64,000 bases of DNA from an uncultured Phycisphaerales bacterium (GCA_964542475.1 CAZIUL010000020.1:540-64539); one strand, 5' to 3'. Shown: positions 7,902 to 54,040, numbered from the stretch's first letter. Notes: generated by a model not told the origin, from the sequence alone. Made by a program: numbers and translations.

Positions 7902-9335
7902 TCACCAGTCTAGCCCGTGCGAGTGGCTTCCCATCACTATGCTCCACTGCAGCATCAGCTCGTGATAATCGCGGCTCGTAATAACATCCCCCCTGTCCTG
8001 ATCGTTGTACCTGTACTGGAACCTGAGCCAGTTGAACGGAGAGATCTTCCAGGTCAAAAAACCGGAATAATCGCGCTTGGCCACATTTGACGCATCCTTG
8101 ATCGAGTAAGCGTCGGCCAGCAGCCCGGTCGACCAGTAAGGGTTCCATTCGTATTCGCACCACAGGTAGCCGCCCAAAGCTTCGTTGTCAACGATCTCGT
8201 GGTGACCGTCGTGTTCGTGCAGGAAAGTGCCGTTCGATACCAGGGCCTCGCCTCCAAGATTAAACGCGCGGCGCGATGCGGGATCCTGCCACTTGTAGGT
8301 CATGTCGAGTGCGCCCACGGCCCGGTGAGTGTGATGACGCTCATCCCCGTGTTCTACCTGGATGTCCGGGGCCCACCACGCGCTGCTCCCGAGCTGGACA
8401 CTGCTCTCTTCAGTGACATCCATGTACGAAGTCACGCGGCCCCCATAGGAAAAGTTGTCGAGATGCCTTTTGGGGAAGTGCTCCCCTTGTTCATCGTGGT
8501 GGTGATGCGCGTGTCCTATTGCGTGCGTGTGCCCCTCGAGCTTGGTGAACACCCCGACCGACCACCTCAGAGGTATCTCGTCGGTCAGCCCGAACCACTG
8601 GTGCAGCTCCATGCCTGTTCCCGTGAGGCTTCCGCCGATAAAGTCGGTCAAAACACCCGGCTTTTCCACGAAGGGGAGCGCATGGTCGTGGCGCTGGCCG
8701 AACTTGGTGACATCCGCAAGAAAACGGCCGCCCTTCAAGCTAAAGTTCGCGGGAAGGCGGTTCATAACTCCTGCCGCTTCGATTACCCTCACGGCCTCGC
8801 CTTCCTGGGCCTCAAACGTTGCATAGGCGTAACCGAAAGGATCAACACGCGCTGAAAGGCTCAGCTCGGCCGCACGAAGCCAGAAGCTGTCCTGGCCGAT
8901 GCGTGACCCCTTGCTCGTGGAACATGTGGCGATCGTGTCCAGGACCACTCCGACTGCCGGGTTGAAGATCCGCGAGAACCGGTCGGTCTGCCCGAGCTCG
9001 CCTATCAATCCGGGAGATGCGCCCATGGTCGGGCCGGCCGAGGGCAGATATTCTCCCGTGTCATTACGGCGCATCCGGCCAGGCCGCTCCTCTGTTCCAT
9101 CCTCCACGCTCTCCACCTTATCCAGTTCCAGCAGTTCAAGGGCCAGTTCGAGAGCTTGAATGCGCTCTTCATATTCTTCTCTCATCTTCGCGATCTCTTC
9201 TTTGAGATCCTCTACGGTTACTTTCTTTTCCTGCGCGGACAAGGATTGAGCCGACGCCAGGCAAAACAGGGCGAAGGCGCACCCTGCAGCCGCTTTTACC
9301 AGGTTCATCGATAAATACCTCCAAAACCCGGGCAC
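7902..9335 (-). CDS. Putative outer-membrane beta-barrel porin with N-terminal coiled-coil and a His-rich loop (GHAHHHHDEQGEH); probable metal-regulated OM channel
   Basis: 477 aa with signal peptide, an N-terminal heptad-like segment (EEIAKMREEYEERIQALELALELLE), then alternating amphipathic beta-strand-like sequence ending in an aromatic C-terminal residue (W); sits immediately upstream of znuACB on the same strand. Confidence 0.5.
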   Translation of the reverse strand: MPGFWRYLSMNLVKAAAGCAFALFCLASAQSLSAQEKKVTVEDLKEEIAKMREEYEERIQALELALELLELDKVESVEDGTEERPGRMRRNDTGEYLPSAGPTMGASPGLIGELGQTDRFSRIFNPAVGVVLDTIATCSTSKGSRIGQDSFWLRAAELSLSARVDPFGYAYATFEAQEGEAVRVIEAAGVMNRLPANFSLKGGRFLADVTKFGQRHDHALPFVEKPGVLTDFIGGSLTGTGMELHQWFGLTDEIPLRWSVGVFTKLEGHTHAIGHAHHHHDEQGEHFPKRHLDNFSYGGRVTSYMDVTEESSVQLGSSAWWAPDIQVEHGDERHHTHRAVGALDMTYKWQDPASRRAFNLGGEALVSNGTFLHEHDGHHEIVDNEALGGYLWCEYEWNPYWSTGLLADAYSIKDASNVAKRDYSGFLTWKISPFNWLRFQYRYNDQDRGDVITSRDYHELMLQWSIVMGSHSHGLDW

Positions 9336-44226: not shown

Positions 44227-44304
44227 TGGTAGCCCCAAGGGGATTCGAACCCCTGTTTGATGGCTGAGAACCACCCGTCCTGGACCAGGCTAGACTATGG
44301 GGCC
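44227..44304 (-). tRNA. tRNA-Glu (anticodon CUC), CCA encoded
   Basis: Manual fold: acceptor GGCCCCA/TGGGGCT, D-arm GTCT..GGAC, anticodon stem GGTGG/CCATC with loop TTCTCAG, T-arm AGGGGTTCGAATCCCCT; close to the E. coli tRNA-Glu scaffold. Confidence 0.75.
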
Positions 44305-44675: not shown

Positions 44676-46610
44676 ATGAATACACGCGAAAAAACAGTTT
44701 TAGCCGTTGTTTTCACGGTCGGTCTCATCCTGCTGGCAGCAGCCGGTTACTACCTCTTTCTGGGCGACACGTCAGGGCCCGACCCCGTAGAAATCGTTTC
44801 CGGAGAGCAGCCTGATGAAGTGGAGACCTTGATAATAAAAGATATCGAGGGTGACCGGGGAGAGTTCATCGAAACGGCGATCCCTAAAAAGGAAGAGAAG
44901 GACATCGGCGCCCTGTTCGGGCTTGTGACTGATGCGGATGAAGAACCGCTGGCGGACGCTGATGTGGCGGTGTTCAGATCCAGCAGACCGATCTCGTTTA
45001 TTTCCGGCACTGTCAAGCCGCTCTACACGACAACAACAGACAAGCACGGAAAATACAGGTTTGAACCGCTCTATACCGGAAGCGGTTACCGGCTTGTTGT
45101 CAAGCATCACGAGTACATGCACAAGAAGCTCGACAACATCCGTATAACACAGGGAGGAGACACCGAGGCGCCCAACATAATGCTGATTCCCGGTAAAACC
45201 GTTACCGGCAAGGTGAGGGATATGAAAAACCATCCCATCAGCGGCGCAGTCATAGCTGTCTTGAACCCGGTCACTGTTTCGTCAAAAGGGTCAACTGGGC
45301 CGGGAGACAACGAGCCGTTAGCTCTTACGAGAACAAACGATGACGGCGAATACTCAATACCCAACATCAACGACAGCAACTTCAAGGTTCGTGCCTCAGC
45401 CCCCGGTTACGCGACACAGTTGAAGCGGAACGAACAGGTTTTCACGAAAATAACCGTGTTCGAGTTCGATTTCCATCTCGACAAAGCGCTGTGCATCGAA
45501 GGAGTGGTGGCGGATGAAAAAGACAACCCTTTGCCGGGAGCCCGGGTCCATGCGCACAAAATGAAAAGCAAGAACCGCCTCCAGGCCTCAGCGACAACCG
45601 ACAAAAAAGGCCGCTTTGTCATCGAAAGCCTGTCCGAGGGCATATACTACGTGGCTGCCACGCACGAGCTCTATTCAACCGAGCCGATGCCGGGAGTGGA
45701 AGCCGGCACTGATAACCTGCGTTTTTATCTGCCCCACAGGAGCGGAATCGCCGGGCAGGTCACCGACTCCGGAAATGTCCCGGTGGCTTCGTTCTGGCTC
45801 AACATCGAGCGCGAGAACGCTCCCCCGGACGGTTGGACCCAGCAGGAGATGCGGAAGAAGTTCTTTCACAAGGAGGGCCGTTTTGTCATCGACGGTGTGG
45901 AACCGGGAAAGTACACGGTCGAGGTGATGGCATCCGGATTCGCCCCGTTCAAAACCGAAAACATAGAGGTGATCAAGGAGGTCTACACAAGCGGCCTTTC
46001 AATCGTGCTGAACAGGGGGGGTACGTTATCCGGATGCGTGCTGAGTCCGGACTCGAAACTGCTCAGCAATGTCACGGTCCGGCTGAGAAGAAACCGCTAC
46101 AAGCCGAACCCCATAGAAAAGTACTTCGGCATAATACGGGACAACCGGACACCAGCGGTGCAGACAGACAAGGACGGGCTCTACAAAATAAAGAACATAG
46201 TTCCGGGCACCTACCAGCTTGAGTTCACGCACAAAACATATCCTTCACTTCATCTTCGCGATGTAAAGGTGAACCTCGACCAGAACACCGAGGTTCCCAA
46301 GCAGTGGATGGAAACCGGGGCCACGCTCCAGGGAACGGTCTACAACGAAACCAATCTGGCTCTGCCCGGAGTGACGGTCAACATCAGAAAAAGCGACACC
46401 ACATTCCACCACACCGAAACAACGAACGCGATGGGCTTCTACAAGATCACCCCTATTCCAGCGGGCATCTACACGGTCGAGCCCTTGGGAAACATAAAAC
46501 AGACCAAAAGCCCGTTCTCGATGATTGGATCCGTTATCAGGAGTCAGGTCAAGAACGTGGAAATCTTCGAGGGTGAGGTCAAGGAACTCAACCTCGTGAT
46601 CTACGATTGA
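44676..46610 (+). CDS. Membrane-anchored protein with 5-6 carboxypeptidase-regulatory-like (CarboxypepD_reg/Cna-B-like) beta-sandwich repeats
   Basis: N-terminal TM anchor; repeated GxVxDxxGxPLxGAxV-type modules. Confidence 0.55.
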   Translation: MNTREKTVLAVVFTVGLILLAAAGYYLFLGDTSGPDPVEIVSGEQPDEVETLIIKDIEGDRGEFIETAIPKKEEKDIGALFGLVTDADEEPLADADVAVFRSSRPISFISGTVKPLYTTTTDKHGKYRFEPLYTGSGYRLVVKHHEYMHKKLDNIRITQGGDTEAPNIMLIPGKTVTGKVRDMKNHPISGAVIAVLNPVTVSSKGSTGPGDNEPLALTRTNDDGEYSIPNINDSNFKVRASAPGYATQLKRNEQVFTKITVFEFDFHLDKALCIEGVVADEKDNPLPGARVHAHKMKSKNRLQASATTDKKGRFVIESLSEGIYYVAATHELYSTEPMPGVEAGTDNLRFYLPHRSGIAGQVTDSGNVPVASFWLNIERENAPPDGWTQQEMRKKFFHKEGRFVIDGVEPGKYTVEVMASGFAPFKTENIEVIKEVYTSGLSIVLNRGGTLSGCVLSPDSKLLSNVTVRLRRNRYKPNPIEKYFGIIRDNRTPAVQTDKDGLYKIKNIVPGTYQLEFTHKTYPSLHLRDVKVNLDQNTEVPKQWMETGATLQGTVYNETNLALPGVTVNIRKSDTTFHHTETTNAMGFYKITPIPAGIYTVEPLGNIKQTKSPFSMIGSVIRSQVKNVEIFEGEVKELNLVIYD

Positions 46611-46885: not shown

Positions 46886-48454
46886 ATGGCCAAGGTGCTT
46901 TTCATTTTTCCGAGCATCAACGCACAGGAGGGTTTCAGCCACGGGATCGCTTCCCTTTCCGGGGCGCTCGAGGCCATGGGCTGTGAGACAAAACTGATCC
47001 ATCTGAGCGACTCGCTCTTCGACCTCCCCACCGCTGACGAGCTCGCCTCGAAGGTCATGGATTTCGATCCTCACCTGATCTGTTTCTCAGCCATGTCTCA
47101 GCAGTACAAGTACGCGCTTGAAATCGCGCGCGAGCTCAAGAAAAGGTTCCCTTTCCCGATAGCCATCGGCGGGGTTCACGCAACAATGGTCCCGGACGAG
47201 GTTGCTTCGGATGATGTGTTCGATTTCATAGGCATCGGAGAGTGCGACAAAGCATTGCCGGCGCTCATGGAAGCGCTGACAAACGACACAGGCTTTACTT
47301 CCATTCCAAACATCTGGGCAAAGACCGATTCCGGGTATAAAAGGAACACGGTTGCCGCCTACCCGGATCTCGAACTTCTGCCGGAAAAGAACCACGAAAT
47401 CTTCGCGCTCGACGAGATGCTTCCCAAGATGAACGGCTGGATGTCGATCATCACCTCCCGCGGGTGTCCCTACAGCTGCTCCTACTGCTTCAACCACCAG
47501 ATCAGAGAGCTTTACAAGCGCGACGCGGGGCAAACCCCATCGGATTACATCAGGCGCTACCCGATAAAACGCGTCATCCGTGAAATGAAAACCATCAAGG
47601 AGATGCATCCCTCGCTCAAGGTCTTCATCGTTGATGACGACCTTTTCACGCTCAACGAGGAGTACGTGCTGTCCTTCTGCGAGGCTTACGCGTCATCCGG
47701 CCTTGACCTCCCGTTCGTGGTGAACGGGCACGTACAGGCGTTCAACCGCCGCATGGCAAAGGCTCTCAAGGCTGCCGGGTGCATGATCCTGAAGTTCGGT
47801 GTGGAGAGCGGCTCCGAAAGGATCCGCAAGGATGTGCTCAAAAGACAGATGAAGGACAAGGCCATATACGAGGCGTTCGAGACGGCGCACGAGGAAGGGC
47901 TGCACACATCAGCGTTCATCATGATCGGACTTCCCACCGAAGGGCGAAAGGATGTCGACGACACGATCGACATGCTGGCCGGGATCGCGCCCGGAAGGTT
48001 CCGCTGGGCCGTTTTCTACCCTTTTCCAGGCACTTCCATACACCGCTTCTGCCTGGACAAGCAGTTGATCGACCTGAAAAGGATGGCGGCTCTTGACAAC
48101 TTCTACGAGGCATCTCCTCTCTGCTTCGATCCGGCCCAGGAGCTTTTGATCAAAAAGCTCCAGCGCGCGTTTCACTGGTACGTGAACGCTCGTTCAAGCT
48201 TTGGCAGCGCTCCTTTGTATGCAAAAGAGGTGGAAGCGATCGAAAACGCATCAGAACAGGAATGGGCTGCAAGGTCTGAACGGTTCATGGACGAGGACAG
48301 AAAAATGTCCGAAAAAATGACCGCGCAATCACGGCTTCATTACTCAATCCGGTTCACCCAGGTGATGGCAGTAAGGTCCGATTTCCAGGAAGCCGGAACA
48401 GAGACCTCACTGCCGGCCAAGGAGTGGAAATCAAAACCCCGGAAATCGTTGTGA
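46886..48454 (+). CDS. Cobalamin-binding (class B) radical SAM enzyme
   Basis: N-terminal B12-binding-like Rossmann domain, CxxxCxxC motif SRGCPYSCSYC, followed by the TIM-barrel region; 522 aa. Confidence 0.75.
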   Translation: MAKVLFIFPSINAQEGFSHGIASLSGALEAMGCETKLIHLSDSLFDLPTADELASKVMDFDPHLICFSAMSQQYKYALEIARELKKRFPFPIAIGGVHATMVPDEVASDDVFDFIGIGECDKALPALMEALTNDTGFTSIPNIWAKTDSGYKRNTVAAYPDLELLPEKNHEIFALDEMLPKMNGWMSIITSRGCPYSCSYCFNHQIRELYKRDAGQTPSDYIRRYPIKRVIREMKTIKEMHPSLKVFIVDDDLFTLNEEYVLSFCEAYASSGLDLPFVVNGHVQAFNRRMAKALKAAGCMILKFGVESGSERIRKDVLKRQMKDKAIYEAFETAHEEGLHTSAFIMIGLPTEGRKDVDDTIDMLAGIAPGRFRWAVFYPFPGTSIHRFCLDKQLIDLKRMAALDNFYEASPLCFDPAQELLIKKLQRAFHWYVNARSSFGSAPLYAKEVEAIENASEQEWAARSERFMDEDRKMSEKMTAQSRLHYSIRFTQVMAVRSDFQEAGTETSLPAKEWKSKPRKSL

Positions 48455-48518
48455 ACGGTTCGGGGAAACCGCGAACAGCTTTGTATGCAAAGCCGTTTTT
48501 TTTCGGTGTTGGACACGA

Positions 48519-49022
48519 ATGAGAATAACACGTTTTATAAGCGAAGACCTGATAAAGCTCGACATGGAGACATGCCGGGATCCGGAGATCGATGATTCGC
48601 TCGAAGGCGACAGACTCATCGCCTGCTACCGCGAACGAGTCATCGGGGAGGTGGCGGACCTGCTCTGCGAATCCGGCAAGGTCGGCAACAGGCAGAAGCT
48701 CTTCACCGATCTTTTGAACCGGGAAAAAAGGGCATGCACTGCCATCGGCCAAGCGTTCGCAATCCCACACGTGCGAACTCTTCAGGCAAAAGACACGATC
48801 ATCGGGTTCATGCGCTCCTGGCGGGGAGTGCCCTTCGGAGCTGCGGACGGGCTGGATGTGCAGGTGTTCATTCCCATTGTCGGGCCGCCTTACAACGACA
48901 AGCTGTACCTGAAAATCTACAGGCGCCTGGGTGAGCTGTTTTCGGAAGAAGGCGTGATCGACCGTTTCATGGACATCGAACAGCCCGGAGAGGTGATCAG
49001 AATCCTGGGCAGCATTTCCTGA
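48519..49022 (+). CDS. PTS EIIA-Ntr (PtsN)-like regulatory protein
   Basis: GQAFAIPHVRT active-site His motif; about 167 aa. Confidence 0.65.
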   Translation: MRITRFISEDLIKLDMETCRDPEIDDSLEGDRLIACYRERVIGEVADLLCESGKVGNRQKLFTDLLNREKRACTAIGQAFAIPHVRTLQAKDTIIGFMRSWRGVPFGAADGLDVQVFIPIVGPPYNDKLYLKIYRRLGELFSEEGVIDRFMDIEQPGEVIRILGSIS

Positions 49023-49056
49023 CCCGGGGCGCATCTACAAAAAGGAGAAAAAAGGA

Positions 49057-49248
49057 ATGGAATGCAACAAGGAAGAGAACGCCAAGAGCTGCGCGTGCAC
49101 CTATTCGAGCTGCGACAAACGCGGCCTTTGCTGCGCCTGCGTGGTCTACCATCGCGACCGTGGAGAGCTGCCGGGGTGCTTTTTCACAAAAAAGGGTGAA
49201 CGCACATACGACCGGTCCATCAAGAACTACATGAAGAATCACTTGTAA
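49057..49248 (+). CDS. 63-aa cysteine-rich small protein (8 Cys: C-x8-C-x-C-x4-C-x5-CC-x-C-x12-C)
   Basis: SD aaaggag 9 nt upstream; high GC3 in this frame; the Cys spacing is non-random. Confidence 0.5.
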   Translation: MECNKEENAKSCACTYSSCDKRGLCCACVVYHRDRGELPGCFFTKKGERTYDRSIKNYMKNHL

Positions 49249-49253
49249 TGGAG

Positions 49254-49273
49254 GGTCGGGTTCCTTCCCGACC
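49254..49273. terminator. Candidate bidirectional hairpin (ggtcggg-ttcctt-cccgacc) between convergent operons; no T tract
   Basis: 7-bp GC stem seen in sequence. Confidence 0.25.
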
Positions 49274-49297: not shown

Positions 49298-51082
49298 CTA
49301 TGGCATCTCAACCGCCGCGGCAGCGCCGTTCTTTCCGGAAAAGAACAGGTATGTGTGTTTTTCCGGTTTCAGTGCCCGCATCTCGTCAACGGTCACGATC
49401 GGCCAGAGCTTTTTCATGTCGAAATCAAAGCTCTCCTCCCGCGCCCCTTCGGGTCTTGGCTTCCCTACGAGCGCGCCCTTGTCGAGGATCCGGTTGTGCT
49501 GCGGGTCGGTTGTGATGCAGTTGACATCGAGCGCGTCCGTAAACACCGCGCTCTCGGAAGTCACGGACCTTCTCGAATAGATGTAACGCAAGAGCTCCCT
49601 CATGTGCCTCGACAGATCCGCCAATCCCTTCGTCGCAAAAAGCCCGGCAGCGCTCTCCTCGAACAGATCAGCCAAACGATCGAGCAGCTCTTCATCCACC
49701 CTGTTGCTGTGCAGCTCTGAGAGGCTTTCGTGAAGCCCGGCGTTGTACGCGTGCCACGCCCACATCTCGATCAGATCGCCGGCCGGAACCCCTGTAAGCT
49801 TCGAAAGCCGGTAAAAAATCGGCTGCATCTGCCTGTTCCAGTCCGTCATCGCCTTTCCGATCATTACCTGATCCGCGGGAAAGGTGGAGTTGGACACGAT
49901 CTCGTGGCTGGAGCCTGCCCCGCCCTCCTCGATCCCGAACCGCTTCGCTTCCGTGTGAAGCATCGTTCGAGGCAGAACCTCCAGGTTGAACGCAAAAACA
50001 TTAGTGGGCTCCTTTGAATAGACCCAGCTTAGCGACTCCTTGAAGCTCTCGAGGTCATCCCCCGGTAGACCCATTATGATCTCGAGTCCGAGAAGGCAGC
50101 TCTTGTTCACCGCTAGCCGGTCGAGAAGGGCTCCGATCCGGTCGGGGTCCCATTTCCTGTTTATGTTCTCCATTGCCTTGTGGCTCAAGGTCTGGAGCCC
50201 CAGCCCGAGATAGGTGAGCCGGGTTTTGCCGACCGCTTCGACAAAAGCCTCGTCCAGCAGGTTCGGGTGCGCTTCGATCCACAGCGCAGCATCAAGCGAT
50301 ATCTCCGCCATCCGGTCGAGCAGACGCTTCGCCCGCTTCCTGTCGAGGTTGAACGTGGAGTCCACGCAAAAAACCTTTTCAGCCCCGTGGGCCTTGAAAA
50401 AATCGAGCTCAGCTTCCGCCCTGGACAGGGAAAACGCGGCAACGGGGCGGTTCCCCCCGTAGTCACAGTATGCGCACTTGAACGGGCATCCCCTGGTGGT
50501 CTGGAAATAAACACCGCCCTGAACCTCGTCCACGCCGAGAACATTGCTCAGGTATGGAGATTCGTAACAATCGAGATCCTTTGCGGGCATCCTGGTCTTC
50601 GAGAGAAAAGGGCTGCCGTCATCCTTTCGGACAGCGATCCCGGGCACATTCCCGGGCTTCCCGTCTTTCAGCAGCTCGTGCAGGATCCCGCGGAAATTCT
50701 CCTCTCCCTCCCCCACCGACACAAAATCCACACCCGGATTCTCCCGAAGCACTTCCTCGTAGTGGTAATCGACCTCGGGGCCGCCGAGAAAAACGAGCTG
50801 GCCCGGTGTGATCCTCTTGAGCTGCTTCACGATATCGAGAACCCGTGGCGTGTTCCACACGTAGCATCCGAAGCAAACCAGGTCCGGGCCTTCCGCCGCA
50901 ACCTCTTCCGCTATCTGCGCCGCCTCTTTAATGCGTGTGTCGTAATATTGGTGATCGATGCGCAACCGGTCCGAAAGCTCTTTGTCAGCGAGGGCATGCG
51001 CATGGATGTAGCCCAGCCCCAGGAACTTCCTGTGGAAGGTGAAGGGCGTTGGATACGAGGCTGATGCAAGGAGGACCTTCAT
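49298..51082 (-). CDS. Cobalamin-binding (class B) radical SAM enzyme, second paralog-class member
   Basis: CxxxCxxC motif TTRGCPFKCAYC; N-terminal B12-binding-like domain; 594 aa; downstream of iorAB on the same strand. Confidence 0.75.
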   Translation of the reverse strand: MKVLLASASYPTPFTFHRKFLGLGYIHAHALADKELSDRLRIDHQYYDTRIKEAAQIAEEVAAEGPDLVCFGCYVWNTPRVLDIVKQLKRITPGQLVFLGGPEVDYHYEEVLRENPGVDFVSVGEGEENFRGILHELLKDGKPGNVPGIAVRKDDGSPFLSKTRMPAKDLDCYESPYLSNVLGVDEVQGGVYFQTTRGCPFKCAYCDYGGNRPVAAFSLSRAEAELDFFKAHGAEKVFCVDSTFNLDRKRAKRLLDRMAEISLDAALWIEAHPNLLDEAFVEAVGKTRLTYLGLGLQTLSHKAMENINRKWDPDRIGALLDRLAVNKSCLLGLEIIMGLPGDDLESFKESLSWVYSKEPTNVFAFNLEVLPRTMLHTEAKRFGIEEGGAGSSHEIVSNSTFPADQVMIGKAMTDWNRQMQPIFYRLSKLTGVPAGDLIEMWAWHAYNAGLHESLSELHSNRVDEELLDRLADLFEESAAGLFATKGLADLSRHMRELLRYIYSRRSVTSESAVFTDALDVNCITTDPQHNRILDKGALVGKPRPEGAREESFDFDMKKLWPIVTVDEMRALKPEKHTYLFFSGKNGAAAAVEMP

Positions 51083-51094
51083 TCGCTCAAACGC

Positions 51095-51883
51095 TTAAAT
51101 CGCACCCTTATCAAGGAGTTCCAATGCCCTGGCTGTGGTACCGGAGATCTTCTCCCCATCCGCTTCGGCTTTTGACGCAAGCCCGGGATGCTTCTTGAAG
51201 ATCTCCTTCCACACAGGCAGCGAGTCGTCTTCTAGGTCGCGTGGATCCAGAACCGCTGCCAGGACGCGGACATCCGCGGGCAACAACCCCTTCTCCAGCG
51301 CGGCTCGGAAATACCCGCTCATACGGGCCCCGAAATCGAAAGCGTTCCTGTTCACATCAACAGCCTTTTCCCCCTTTGATTTGAAGAGTGCGTCAACGAA
51401 CTCCAGGCATGTCTCGGTGCTGAACGGCAGAAGGGGCGCAGCCGCTCCGAGCATGACCATGTTCTGCGCCTTCGCGCTGCCCGCGAGCTTCGCAAGCGCG
51501 CCCGAATCGAGAAGAACGTGCCTTTCGAGCAGTGCTATCTTTTCGTAAAGCCCGCCCGGCTCGGGGTAATCTGAAATGTTCCTGAAAGGTGTCGAGCTGG
51601 AGATTACAACGCCGTCCGGTTTCAAATATTGGACGTAACGGAGCGCCTCCAACGGATCCACGCTCAACACGAGGTCCGCGGAGCCCTCTGCGATAAGATC
51701 GCTCCAGATCTCGTTCTTGCTGAACCGGATATGGGACTGGACAGCCCCGCCCCGCTGGGACATCCCGTGAACCTCCGCCTGCTTGAACCGATATCCCTCC
51801 TTCATGGCCGCGTTGTCCAGCACAAAGGCGATGGAAAGGATGCCCTGGCCGCCCACGCCCGAAACAATGATGTTCATATCCAT
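51095..51883 (-). CDS. iorB: Indolepyruvate:ferredoxin oxidoreductase, beta subunit
   Basis: MNIIVSGVGGQGIL N-terminus; start trimmed to avoid a long overlap with iorA. Confidence 0.75.
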   Translation of the reverse strand: MDMNIIVSGVGGQGILSIAFVLDNAAMKEGYRFKQAEVHGMSQRGGAVQSHIRFSKNEIWSDLIAEGSADLVLSVDPLEALRYVQYLKPDGVVISSSTPFRNISDYPEPGGLYEKIALLERHVLLDSGALAKLAGSAKAQNMVMLGAAAPLLPFSTETCLEFVDALFKSKGEKAVDVNRNAFDFGARMSGYFRAALEKGLLPADVRVLAAVLDPRDLEDDSLPVWKEIFKKHPGLASKAEADGEKISGTTARALELLDKGAI

Positions 51884-51894
51884 CTGATCCTCCG

Positions 51895-53472
51895 TTACTT
51901 TCTGATCTGGATGCACGGCCGTGTGGGAATGATGACCGAGAGCCCGCTGTAGGCTATCTCGCTCTTGAACAGGGCCACGTTTTCCGCGTGGTGTTTCGGC
52001 AATGGATTTATCACGTGCAGATGCTCGGGATCGACCCCCGCCCCCTTCAGAAGCGAAACCAGCCCGTCTCCTGTTAGCGCGGTTTCCTGTCGGCCCGTCA
52101 TCGCCGTTATCGAGTTGTCAACGATGACGAGCACCATGTTTGTGTCGTTGGCGACCGCGTCGATGAGCGGTGTTATGCCCGAGTGCGCAAAGGTTGAATC
52201 ACCGAGAAGAGCCAGGCACGGGTGGATGCCCGCGGCAGCCGCCCCGTTCGCCATGCTCACGCTGGCACCCATGTCCACGCAGGAGTGAATTGCATTGTAC
52301 GGGGGCAGGGCGCCGAGCGTATAACACCCGATGTCCGAGAACACCCGCGCTTCGGGGTACTCCTTCAGAATCTCGCCGATCGCCTTGTAGGTGTCGACGT
52401 GCGGGCACCCCTTGCAGAGCGCCGGCGGACGGCCGGCCAAAGGCTCGATCACGCTCGAGGCGGCGGGCAGGGGATCCAGCCCGAGCGACGCGCGAACGAT
52501 CGTGGGCGTCAGTTCGCCTGTGCGCGGCAGGCTGCCGTCGAGCTTGCCGTGAACCGGTACAGGCGCCGAATCCATGAAGCCGCGAATGGAGGACTCGATG
52601 AAGGGATAACCGTCTTCGAGTATGAGAACCTCGTCGCAGAAATCGAGTAGCTTTGCGATGAGCGGGCGCGGCATGGGAAAGGTACCCGCCTTGAGAAACG
52701 AAACATCGTCGGCTCCATGGCGCGCGTTCTCCATGAAATAGTTGAAGGCCACACCGGATGCAATCACGCCGAGCTTTTTTCCTTTCAAATCGAGCCGGTT
52801 GAACGGAAGCTCCCAGAGTCTCTTCTCCACATCCGCCCACCTGTTGCAAAGCCTGGCGAAGCTTCGCCTGGCGTTCACCGGAAGAAGCGTGAAAATGCCT
52901 CGATCCTCGCTCTTCGGAAGCTCCTGCCTGGCCTGCTTTTTCTTGCCGGTGACAAGGCTCCGGCTGTGCGCAAGACGTGTGACCAGACGGATCATGATCG
53001 GAAGGCCCAGCTCCTCGGAAAGGCTGAACGCCTCGTAGGTCATGTCGTACGCTTCCTGCTGGTTGCTCGGTTCGAGGCACGGCACATGGCCGAAAGTAGA
53101 ATAGTAACGGCTGTCCTGCTCGTTCTGCGAGCTGTGCATTCCCGGATCGTCCGCAACACACACTACCAACCCGCCGTTGACACCCGTGATGCCGGAGTTC
53201 ATGAAAGGGTCAGCCGCCACGTTGAGACCCACATGCTTCATGGACACCGTGCAGCGCCTGCCGGCATAGGACATGCCCAGCGCCTCTTCGTAAGCCACCT
53301 TCTCGTTGGTGGACCATTTCGTGTAAATCCCGCTGCCCTTGGGCTTTCGCGCCATGACATACTCGAAGATCTCGGTGGCAGGGGTTCCCGGGTATGAAAA
53401 AGCGCCGCTGATTCCCGCGTCGATCGCAGCCTGCGCCACAGCCTCGTCACCCATCAAAATCATCTGACTCAT
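51895..53472 (-). CDS. iorA: Indolepyruvate:ferredoxin oxidoreductase, alpha subunit (TPP-binding)
   Basis: Overall 2-oxoacid:ferredoxin oxidoreductase alpha architecture; 525 aa. Confidence 0.75.
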   Translation of the reverse strand: MSQMILMGDEAVAQAAIDAGISGAFSYPGTPATEIFEYVMARKPKGSGIYTKWSTNEKVAYEEALGMSYAGRRCTVSMKHVGLNVAADPFMNSGITGVNGGLVVCVADDPGMHSSQNEQDSRYYSTFGHVPCLEPSNQQEAYDMTYEAFSLSEELGLPIMIRLVTRLAHSRSLVTGKKKQARQELPKSEDRGIFTLLPVNARRSFARLCNRWADVEKRLWELPFNRLDLKGKKLGVIASGVAFNYFMENARHGADDVSFLKAGTFPMPRPLIAKLLDFCDEVLILEDGYPFIESSIRGFMDSAPVPVHGKLDGSLPRTGELTPTIVRASLGLDPLPAASSVIEPLAGRPPALCKGCPHVDTYKAIGEILKEYPEARVFSDIGCYTLGALPPYNAIHSCVDMGASVSMANGAAAAGIHPCLALLGDSTFAHSGITPLIDAVANDTNMVLVIVDNSITAMTGRQETALTGDGLVSLLKGAGVDPEHLHVINPLPKHHAENVALFKSEIAYSGLSVIIPTRPCIQIRK

Positions 53473-53538: not shown

Positions 53539-53709
53539 CCGCTTATTTCATATTCTTCGTCGCGAGGTAGCTGTAAACTGTGATGTGGCAAGGCACATGT
53601 CAGGTGACGACCGCAGGCCTGTTCTTACAGGTTGAGGATCGTCACCTGGCATGAAACGCAGCCACGGCGCAGTTTACGGTGCTGCAGCAGAAGAGGATGA
53701 AATATGCGG
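53539..53709. repeat. Family A palindromic repeat, copy 4
   Basis: Identity to copies 1-3; flanks gtaag / tttaac. Confidence 0.8.
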
Positions 53710-53814
53710 TTTAACTTTAATCGATGTGGAAAGGGTTGTCAAGGGGAGGCAAATAAGGCTTTGGGAAAAGGAGGAGGAAGAGAAAGAAAGAAGATTATCC
53801 ATCAATAACAATTG

Positions 53815-54040
53815 ACCCTAATGCGTCATTTTTTCAAACGCAAACTCGCAGCCAGGCGCGCAGGGAGGGGGTCGACGGCGAGTTCCGCAGCGTGCCGCCC
53901 AGCCTTTATCCGTCACCTTACGTGGCCGGTAGAATCGAGCATTATGGCCGGCACGCGAGGATGTTTGAGCCCGGAGCGCCCCCTTCCTGCGCGCCTGAAC
54001 CAGCTTCAACCGGAACTGTTTTTTTGACGCATTAAGGTTG
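53815..54040. repeat. Family B-like element bounded by inverted ccttaatgcgtca termini (second locus)
   Basis: Left cctaatgcgtcatttttt, right tttttttgacgcattaagg; interior unrelated to the 23497..23690 copy. Confidence 0.5.

Follow-up and report, generated by a model that had tools for sequence, protein, structure and literature searches.

A 63-residue DUF6485 protein encoded between two B12-binding radical SAM genes is probably a Cys8His metal-binding mini-protein of a widespread prokaryotic family

Cysteine-rich RiPP precursors that are modified by radical SAM enzymes include the sactipeptides, the ranthipeptides and the proteusin-type peptides methylated by B12-radical SAM enzymes. Small cysteine-rich proteins and domains may also be organized around metal clusters. 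The CXC or tesmin-TSO1 domain, as in LIN54 (PDB 5FD3), contains a Zn3Cys9 cluster, and CXC domains have little regular secondary structure. The bacterial metallothioneins SmtA and BmtA hold a Zn4Cys9His2 cluster. A further group of small cysteine-rich proteins is catalogued in Pfam as DUF6485 (PF20095), and a literature search for both names found no publication. The gene analysed here encodes a protein of this last group and is located next to B12-binding radical SAM genes.

The gene is located in a stretch of 64,000 nucleotides, referred to as the window. A first-pass annotation of the DNA had singled out a 63-residue reading frame with eight cysteines, located between a PtsN-like gene and a convergent B12-radical SAM gene. 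It proposed that the product is either a RiPP precursor on which the adjacent radical SAM enzymes act or a small zinc-ribbon or Fe-S carrier of a type found with radical SAM proteins. The features of the locus are as follows, in window coordinates.

46886..48454, plus strand: second B12-binding radical SAM gene, upstream (Pfam)
48478..48503, plus strand: terminator-like hairpin GCTTTGTATGCAAAGC followed by CGTTTTTTTT (T8 run); consensus match only
48519..49022, plus strand: gene for a PTS_EIIA_2 protein of 167 aa, with an AIPH motif holding the putative phospho-acceptor His (PF00359, E = 1.4e-22)
49043..49047, plus strand: Shine-Dalgarno-like AGGAG, 9 nt 5' of the ATG at 49057 (read from the sequence)
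49057..49248, plus strand: DUF6485 coding sequence, stand-alone, 63 aa (ORF, Pfam, homologues, codon statistics, AlphaFold2)
C3, C12, C14, C19, C25, C26, C28, H32 and C41 of the 63-aa product: putative metal ligands (conservation)
49254..49273, no strand assigned: 7-bp hairpin rich in G+C, GGUCGGG-UUCCUU-CCCGACC, within the 49 nt that separate the convergent stop codons
49298..51082, minus strand: B12-binding radical SAM gene, convergent, downstream (Pfam)

The 63-codon ORF at 49057..49248 encodes MECNKEENAKSCACTYSSCDKRGLCCACVVYHRDRGELPGCFFTKKGERTYDRSIKNYMKNHL, with the cysteine spacing C-x8-C-x-C-x4-C-x5-CC-x-C-x12-C; coordinates, length and cysteine pattern are exactly those first reported. 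At the cysteine frequency of the window (1.4%), the probability of finding eight or more cysteines in 63 residues is 3.6e-6. The ribosome-binding site claimed for the gene is indeed present at a suitable distance from the start codon. Codon usage was scored with a table built from 16 long window genes. GC3 of the frame was 0.758, these reference genes averaging 0.722, and the log-odds of +0.308 bits/codon fell within the range of true genes (+0.25 to +0.47), in agreement with the coding-like third positions noticed earlier. A first homologue search retrieved the identical protein on 11 public contigs together with 37 homologues of 52-77% identity, covering many phyla, and it is chiefly this conservation at the protein level that establishes the ORF, beyond chance, as a genuine, coding gene.

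The first-pass annotation had kept open an alternative product of 45 aa, read in the +1 frame from an ATG at 49062, and had proposed to compare codon usage and GC3 of the two frames. In that comparison only the 49057 frame was gene-like. The +1 frame scored -0.356 bits/codon, similar to out-of-frame reads of true genes (-0.30 to -0.55), and it was dismissed on these codon statistics; the frame preferred from the start was the correct one. The shortness of the ORF and an AAGGA close to the ATG at 49062 might raise the suspicion that the ORF is spurious or that the +1 frame gives the true product, but with gene-like statistics confined to the 49057 frame and homologues of that frame numbering thousands, this explanation is vanishingly improbable.

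The protein matches DUF6485 with 31.7 bits against a gathering cutoff of 24 (E = 2.2e-07), residues 7-59 aligning with profile positions 2-62 of 70. Searches of NCBIfam, PADLOC and PHROGs with the peptide gave no match. Length, stand-alone architecture, Cys/His pattern and the YDRS motif are all those of the family. The first-round homologues were 62-76 aa long without exception, carried PF20095 alone in nearly all cases, and several are named 'DUF6485 family protein'. All 38 first-round members matched DUF6485, with no other Pfam family even at E <= 5. The identical sequence is present in NCBI, JGI, ENA and Logan records with PF20095 precomputed. The gene belongs to an already catalogued, uncharacterised family, for which its annotation is ordinary.

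The family is widely distributed. When 1.84 billion representatives were searched with a profile, the matches formed 531 clusters at 50% identity, and domain fusions were sought among the best 150 of these, which were all 50-132 aa long. With a word-indexed profile search, at least 7,869 clusters at 90% identity were counted; those among the matches listed were all 63-82 aa with PF20095 only. Counted as one genome per species, at least 159 species genomes carry DUF6485, which is a lower bound obtained with the single peptide pattern GELPGCFF. Bacterial carriers are found in Elusimicrobia, Gastranaerophilales, Bacillota, Anaerolineae, Planctomycetota, Nitrospirota, Omnitrophota, Patescibacteria and Thermodesulfobacteriota, with cultured isolates of Desulforudis and Desulfothermobacter among the Bacillota, and archaeal carriers in Bathyarchaeota, Methanosarcinales and Thermoplasmatota. 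Identity between bacterial and archaeal members exceeds 50%, the reduced Patescibacteria genomes included. Compared with these proteins, the window copy is a typical member without extension and is unusual only in its neighbours. One Planctomycetota isolate, ELA013 (JBAWVO01), has two DUF6485 loci on different contigs (L076 and L082), so the gene is not always single-copy.

The longer representatives examined look like mis-called starts or read-through, except for two tandem duplicates and one probable chimera. The DUF6485 domain is duplicated in tandem in P0043 (128 aa) and P0156 (114 aa). In P0156 the repeats end after the last cysteine, which suggests that residues 3-41 may be the metal-binding core and the YDRS helix an add-on. 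In P0135 (117 aa), a DUF6485 domain is joined to thioredoxin sequence that covers the C-terminal two thirds (positions 40-101 of 103 in the Pfam model). Judged from this coverage, the N-terminal region with the active site is absent, and P0135 is probably a chimeric gene call with an adjoining thioredoxin gene.

Conservation within the family is very strong. Among 156 members of 55-75 aa, conservation is at least 99% for each of the eight cysteines and 100% for H32; taken together, the Cys/His ligands and the residues Y51-D52-R53-S54 are each conserved to 92-100%. Conservation of 87-99% was found for N8, Y16, G23, R33, G36, E37, P39, G40, F43, E48, Y51, D52, R53 and S54, and likewise for an aromatic residue at position 58. 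The conserved motifs in the 63-aa product are GELPGCFF and E-x2-YDRSI. Invariant residues span positions 3 to 55, and conservation extends along the whole length. The same 156 members have a median pI of 8.46 and a net charge of about +3, and no signal peptide, membrane or hydrophobic segment was found in DUF6485 members.

AlphaFold2 gave a confident, mostly helical model of the 63-aa protein (mean pLDDT 86.2, pTM 0.64). The predicted helices comprise residues 5-10, 25-33, 45-48 and 55-62, and there are zero strands. C28-x3-H32 is located on one helical face, and the sole CxxC-spaced pair, C25/C28, falls in the predicted helix 25-33. A Foldseek search with the model against solved and viral structures gave no match (best PDB hit, E = 5.2), and sequence searches of the PDB, with the single protein and with the profile, found nothing below E = 2.

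We examined the linkage of DUF6485 to radical SAM genes at 80 species-level loci, searching 6-kb flanks by phmmer with both radical SAM proteins of the window and with EIIA. A B12-radical SAM homologue occurred within 6 kb at a single locus (L013, about 4 kb away) and an EIIA homologue at none of the 80. Precomputed Pfam neighbours in seven further divergent homologue contexts (hisG/surE, lptD/BFN, epimerase/GATase, panD/def, gltX/GATase, argC/NAPRTase and Mur ligase/RidA) likewise included no adjacent B12-radical SAM gene (0/7); the sole radical SAM genes near them were a non-B12 DUF2344-type gene 2.6 kb off and a BioB-type gene 3 kb off. A Pfam scan of 104 immediate neighbours at 57 non-Elusimicrobia loci gave 134 families, each seen at most three times, and Radical_SAM was not among the families seen at least twice. 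The reciprocal test covered four contexts of homologues of the downstream radical SAM protein. DUF6485 was absent from three of the four; near the homologues of 54%, 48% and 45% identity, the EIIA and IOR genes were absent as well. No relatives of the upstream radical SAM gene turned up in a metagenome scan. The homologue search and co-localisation check proposed earlier have thus yielded thousands of homologues and a B12-radical SAM neighbour at 1 of 80 loci. A widespread family unlinked to radical SAM genes is the outcome that the first-pass annotation had itself named as speaking against its proposal, and its suggestion of a domain associated with radical SAM proteins does not survive these counts.

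Where neighbours do recur, they are limited to lineages. Clustering of ORFs within 3 kb revealed recurrent neighbours in a group of 23 loci only (L012-L078, e.g., L026 6302..6682), the labelled ones all being Elusimicrobia; outside this group, no neighbour recurred in more than 4 of 57 loci. At the 23 loci a RidA gene (Ribonuc_L-PSP) lies directly downstream at a median distance of 20 nt, and in most a Mur-ligase gene lies upstream. The two unlabelled contigs of P0015, including L095 (481..1064), have DUF6485 and RidA overlapping by 4 nt. The lineage-wide pairing of the two genes could hint at translational coupling. In Thermodesulfobacteriota-type loci, rplM-rpsI-argC recurs. In four separate contexts (L014, L059, L092/L093 and L009/L010), the gene directly downstream encodes a class-I glutamine amidotransferase (GATase/Peptidase_C26) of about 190 aa; the copies in L014 and L059 are 81% identical and come from bins with different phylum labels. 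All recurrent neighbours are lineage-limited, and a conserved gene neighbour for the family as a whole is absent.

In the window, the EIIA gene precedes DUF6485 on the same strand with a gap of 34 nt, in which no terminator-like site was reported, and the two genes are probably co-transcribed, to judge from this arrangement. The first-pass term 'PtsN-like' is right as to the EIIA_2 domain and too specific as to PtsN: the protein passes only the general Pfam PTS_EIIA_2 model and stays below the cutoffs of the equivalog models for PtsN (TIGR01419, 35.3 vs 138.7 bits; NF008145, 28.4 vs 221) and FruA. The hairpin at 48478..48503 is located in the 64-nt gap from the upstream radical SAM gene to EIIA. 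Six terminator-like sites were observed in the region against 3.4 expected in shuffles, and this one, if functional, would leave EIIA-DUF6485 as a transcription unit separate from the upstream radical SAM gene, as its position suggests. The hairpin at 49254..49273 has no U-tract. Its centroid energy is -14.7 kcal/mol, but the z-score of the 66-nt stretch is only -0.59; folding predictions thus point weakly to a structure that could act as a transcription stop for DUF6485 and the downstream radical SAM gene alike.

Both flanking radical SAM proteins contain B12-binding and Radical_SAM domains only, and the convergent gene downstream was found as first described. For the upstream protein, the best NCBIfam match is the RiPP enzyme ApyD, far below threshold at 147.7 bits (cutoff 750). 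The downstream protein matches the PADLOC candidate defence model PDC-M51A with 170 bits (E = 1.2e-50) over profile positions 55-398 of 420, and the upstream protein matches this model with 5.7e-06 only; this is probably generic B12-radical SAM similarity, and five neighbouring proteins gave no match to PADLOC models. The other neighbours of DUF6485, besides EIIA, encode two IOR/POR subunits, a histidine kinase and a CarboxypepD_reg repeat protein, and no SPASM, RRE/PqqD, protease or exporter genes were found nearby.

The downstream radical SAM gene is part of a minus-strand operon (49298..53472) that consists of an iorA-like gene with POR_N and TPP_enzyme_C domains (51895..53472), an iorB-like POR gene (51095..51916) and the B12-radical SAM gene. 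The first two overlap by 22 nt, the third follows after 12 nt, and the same order is kept in the relative L096 discussed below. It is unusual for a B12-radical SAM enzyme to be paired with a 2-oxoacid:ferredoxin oxidoreductase. Located 5' of the first radical SAM gene, 44676..46610 (plus strand) encodes a protein of 644 aa with about six CarboxypepD_reg/prealbumin-like beta-sandwich repeats. The sole RNA gene detected in the 64-kb window is a tRNA-Glu (anticodon CTC; 44227..44304, minus strand). An Rfam search of the window gave no riboswitch, including no cobalamin riboswitch near the B12-radical SAM genes. A Glu-rich ORF of 54 aa at 53651..53815 (plus strand), MKRSHGAVYGAAAEEDEICGL...EKEEEEKERRLSINNN, is a called gene in the matching public contig and had no match in Pfam or PADLOC.

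The relative L096 has a homologue of the downstream radical SAM protein (62% identity) with DUF6485 adjoining. Here DUF6485 is an uncalled 63-codon gene (7917..8102, minus strand) directly after EIIA, at a place where the source table shows an empty gap of 372 nt. This indicates that small DUF6485 genes are under-annotated and that counts from called proteins are lower bounds. The EIIA and DUF6485 genes are 38 nt apart in L096, with a GGAG at the same distance from the ATG as in the window, and the proteins of the pair are 66-71% identical between the two loci. The collinear block comprises at least eight genes of 39-72% protein identity, at a GC content of 45.9% vs 56.6%, in the order histidine kinase, iorA-like, iorB-like, radical SAM, DUF6485, EIIA, radical SAM, CarboxypepD_reg repeat protein. 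Protein identity is 62-72% in the part from radical SAM/EIIA/DUF6485 to the convergent radical SAM and IOR genes; the repeat protein has kept its position with an identity of only 39%. Because the collinearity extends over at least eight genes, the adjacency of DUF6485 and radical SAM genes in L096 represents general synteny of the lineage.

A Cys-rich RiPP precursor, methylated or thioether-crosslinked by one or both flanking B12-radical SAM enzymes, would agree with the physical position of the gene between the two, with the distant ApyD similarity of the upstream enzyme and with the arrangement kept in L096. But linkage is absent across the family (1/80 and 0/7, with no Radical_SAM among recurrent neighbours), and the L096 synteny includes unrelated genes over its length of at least eight. 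The downstream enzyme is convergent and encoded at the end of a closely packed operon, behind two oxidoreductase genes of IOR/POR type, while a terminator-like site lies between the upstream enzyme and EIIA-DUF6485; the SPASM, PqqD/RRE, protease and exporter genes are missing. The protein itself speaks against it as well: conservation covers the whole length across phyla and domains, without a leader and variable core, autonomous folding is predicted (pLDDT 86), and the window copy is typical and without extension. Comparative context and conservation pattern both argue against the precursor proposed by the first-pass annotation, which we regard as extremely unlikely and have rejected. A clade-specific accessory role is unlikely. 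DUF6485 might work with the co-transcribed EIIA-type regulator, as a target of EIIA or as its metal- or redox-sensing partner, or might provide the nearby radical SAM and IOR enzymes with a small Fe-S or electron carrier. The 34-nt gap without terminator, and the survival of the pair in L096 (38-nt gap) despite 66-71% identity and a 10-point difference in GC content, are consistent with such a role. It rests on two members of one lineage, however, and EIIA is missing from all 80 other loci. General collinearity, which brings the histidine kinase and the CarboxypepD_reg protein into the L096 block too, explains the adjacency, and the window copy is indistinguishable from members in unrelated contexts.

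The small size, the many cysteines and the one CxxC-spaced pair contained in CCxC would suit a known metal-binding fold. A classical zinc ribbon, a rubredoxin-like knuckle or a ferredoxin-type 4Fe-4S mini-protein is very unlikely: the model has four short helices and zero beta strands, Foldseek against the PDB finds none of these folds (best E = 5.2), and none of the 38 members matches a zinc-ribbon, rubredoxin, Fer4 or metallothionein Pfam family at E <= 5. For the zinc ribbon, two knuckles would be needed, and the only CxxC pair (C25/C28) is helical; for the ferredoxin type, the motif CxxCxxCxxxCP is absent from the sequence and no Fer4 match was found at E <= 5. Both were rejected. We hold it to be highly doubtful that DUF6485 is a prokaryotic relative of the eukaryotic CXC domain (tesmin/LIN54, EZH2, MSL2), with three Zn, nine ligands in a Zn3Cys9-type arrangement and DNA contact. 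The nine invariant Cys/His ligands, the CxC motifs, the mildly basic character and a stretch K-x-C-x-C-T-x-S-x-C-x-K that aligns with the start of LIN54 CXC1 would be in line with it. Yet hhalign against LIN54 (its sequence confirmed identical to PDB 5FD3) aligned only 12 columns with a probability of 1.5%, no member of the 38 matched Pfam TCR/CXC or Pre-SET at E <= 5, Foldseek retrieved neither 5FD3 nor EZH2, and the helical model contrasts with the scant regular secondary structure of CXC domains. Homology to CXC/LIN54 was rejected on the hhalign, Pfam and Foldseek results; by analogy, a cluster-type metal site akin to that of CXC is possible in DUF6485.

The reading that we favour, and with good confidence, is that of a genuine DUF6485 gene for a cytoplasmic Cys8His metal-binding mini-protein that probably serves as a housekeeping or regulatory adaptor and is unlinked to the flanking B12-radical SAM enzymes. 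By the standard of cytoplasmic Cys-rich mini-proteins in general, a soluble protein of 63 residues with nine invariant Cys/His ligands is almost certainly metal-holding. Because eight cysteines and one histidine are invariant in a cytoplasmic protein, the metal or Fe-S mini-protein of the first-pass annotation stays plausible and is preferred; its zinc-ribbon variant does not fit a helical model that has no strands and no match among known folds. From the sequence pattern we infer that the nine side chains would hold metal in the reducing cytoplasm and that a protein this small would owe its fold to the metal. The site could comprise two tetrahedral Zn sites, a Zn-thiolate cluster in which the CxC and CCxC pairs act as bridging ligands, or an Fe-S cluster; these pairs suggest thiolate bridges or sites that lie close together. 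Most carriers come from lineages that are largely anaerobic, which would fit an Fe-S centre, whereas Zn would agree with carriage by Nitrospira and Planctomycetaceae.

The polar and aromatic residues that are also invariant indicate a specific surface for binding rather than simple metal storage, and for that reason a small metal-stabilised adaptor or regulator is favoured. Y16, R33, GELPG, F43, E48 and Y51-D52-R53-S54, together with the mild positive charge, may form a surface for binding a macromolecule. DUF6485 would then probably be no enzyme but a small adaptor with a housekeeping or regulatory role. For the flanking B12-radical SAM enzymes it would serve neither as substrate nor as dedicated partner. 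A bolder proposal, to which we give slightly less than an even chance, is that a helical fold of about 60 residues built on a Cys8His centre, either a multinuclear Zn-thiolate or an Fe-S centre, would make DUF6485 an unrecognised type of small metalloprotein without a solved structural relative and with a housekeeping or regulatory function. The nine invariant ligands, the confident model without Foldseek match and the lack of papers found point partly in this direction.

For annotation, the standard label of the window gene is 'DUF6485 family protein', and a new radical-SAM RiPP cluster is unsupported. The small Cys8His proteins of DUF6485, which gene callers sometimes miss, form a large family in bacteria and archaea with very strong conservation. 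PDB searches and neighbourhood surveys found no structure and no conserved gene partner for it. The family is a good candidate for studies of structure and metal content, for which cultured carriers are available among the Desulforudis and Desulfothermobacter isolates, such as Desulforudis sp. Tu-874 and Desulfothermobacter acidiphilus.

Compared with the described systems, the window protein is closest to the other members of PF20095, with which it shares a length of about 65 aa, the stand-alone architecture, the invariant Cys8His set and the YDRS motif; the protein shows no difference from them, and only its EIIA and two B12-radical SAM neighbours, common to one related lineage, set the locus apart. 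With radical-SAM RiPP precursors it has in common that it is short and Cys-rich and, in the window, adjoins B12-binding radical SAM genes. Unlike these precursors, the family lacks conserved co-localisation with radical SAM genes, a leader/core split and core variability, is confidently modelled as a folded protein, occurs in both bacteria and archaea, and has no SPASM, RRE, protease or exporter genes nearby. The CXC/tesmin-TSO1 domain of LIN54 is likewise small and Cys-rich, has CxC motifs and nine potential ligands, and contains a locally similar C-x-C-T-x-S-x-C, whereas the cysteine spacing of DUF6485 departs from it after the first three cysteines, one ligand is a histidine and the predicted fold is helical. 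SmtA/BmtA resembles DUF6485 in being cytoplasmic and about 60 aa long, with a fold that in DUF6485 would also rest on a Cys/His metal-thiolate cluster. DUF6485 differs in having no match to Pfam metallothionein families and in the very strong conservation of its non-ligand residues across phyla, which suggests an interaction surface rather than metal buffering.
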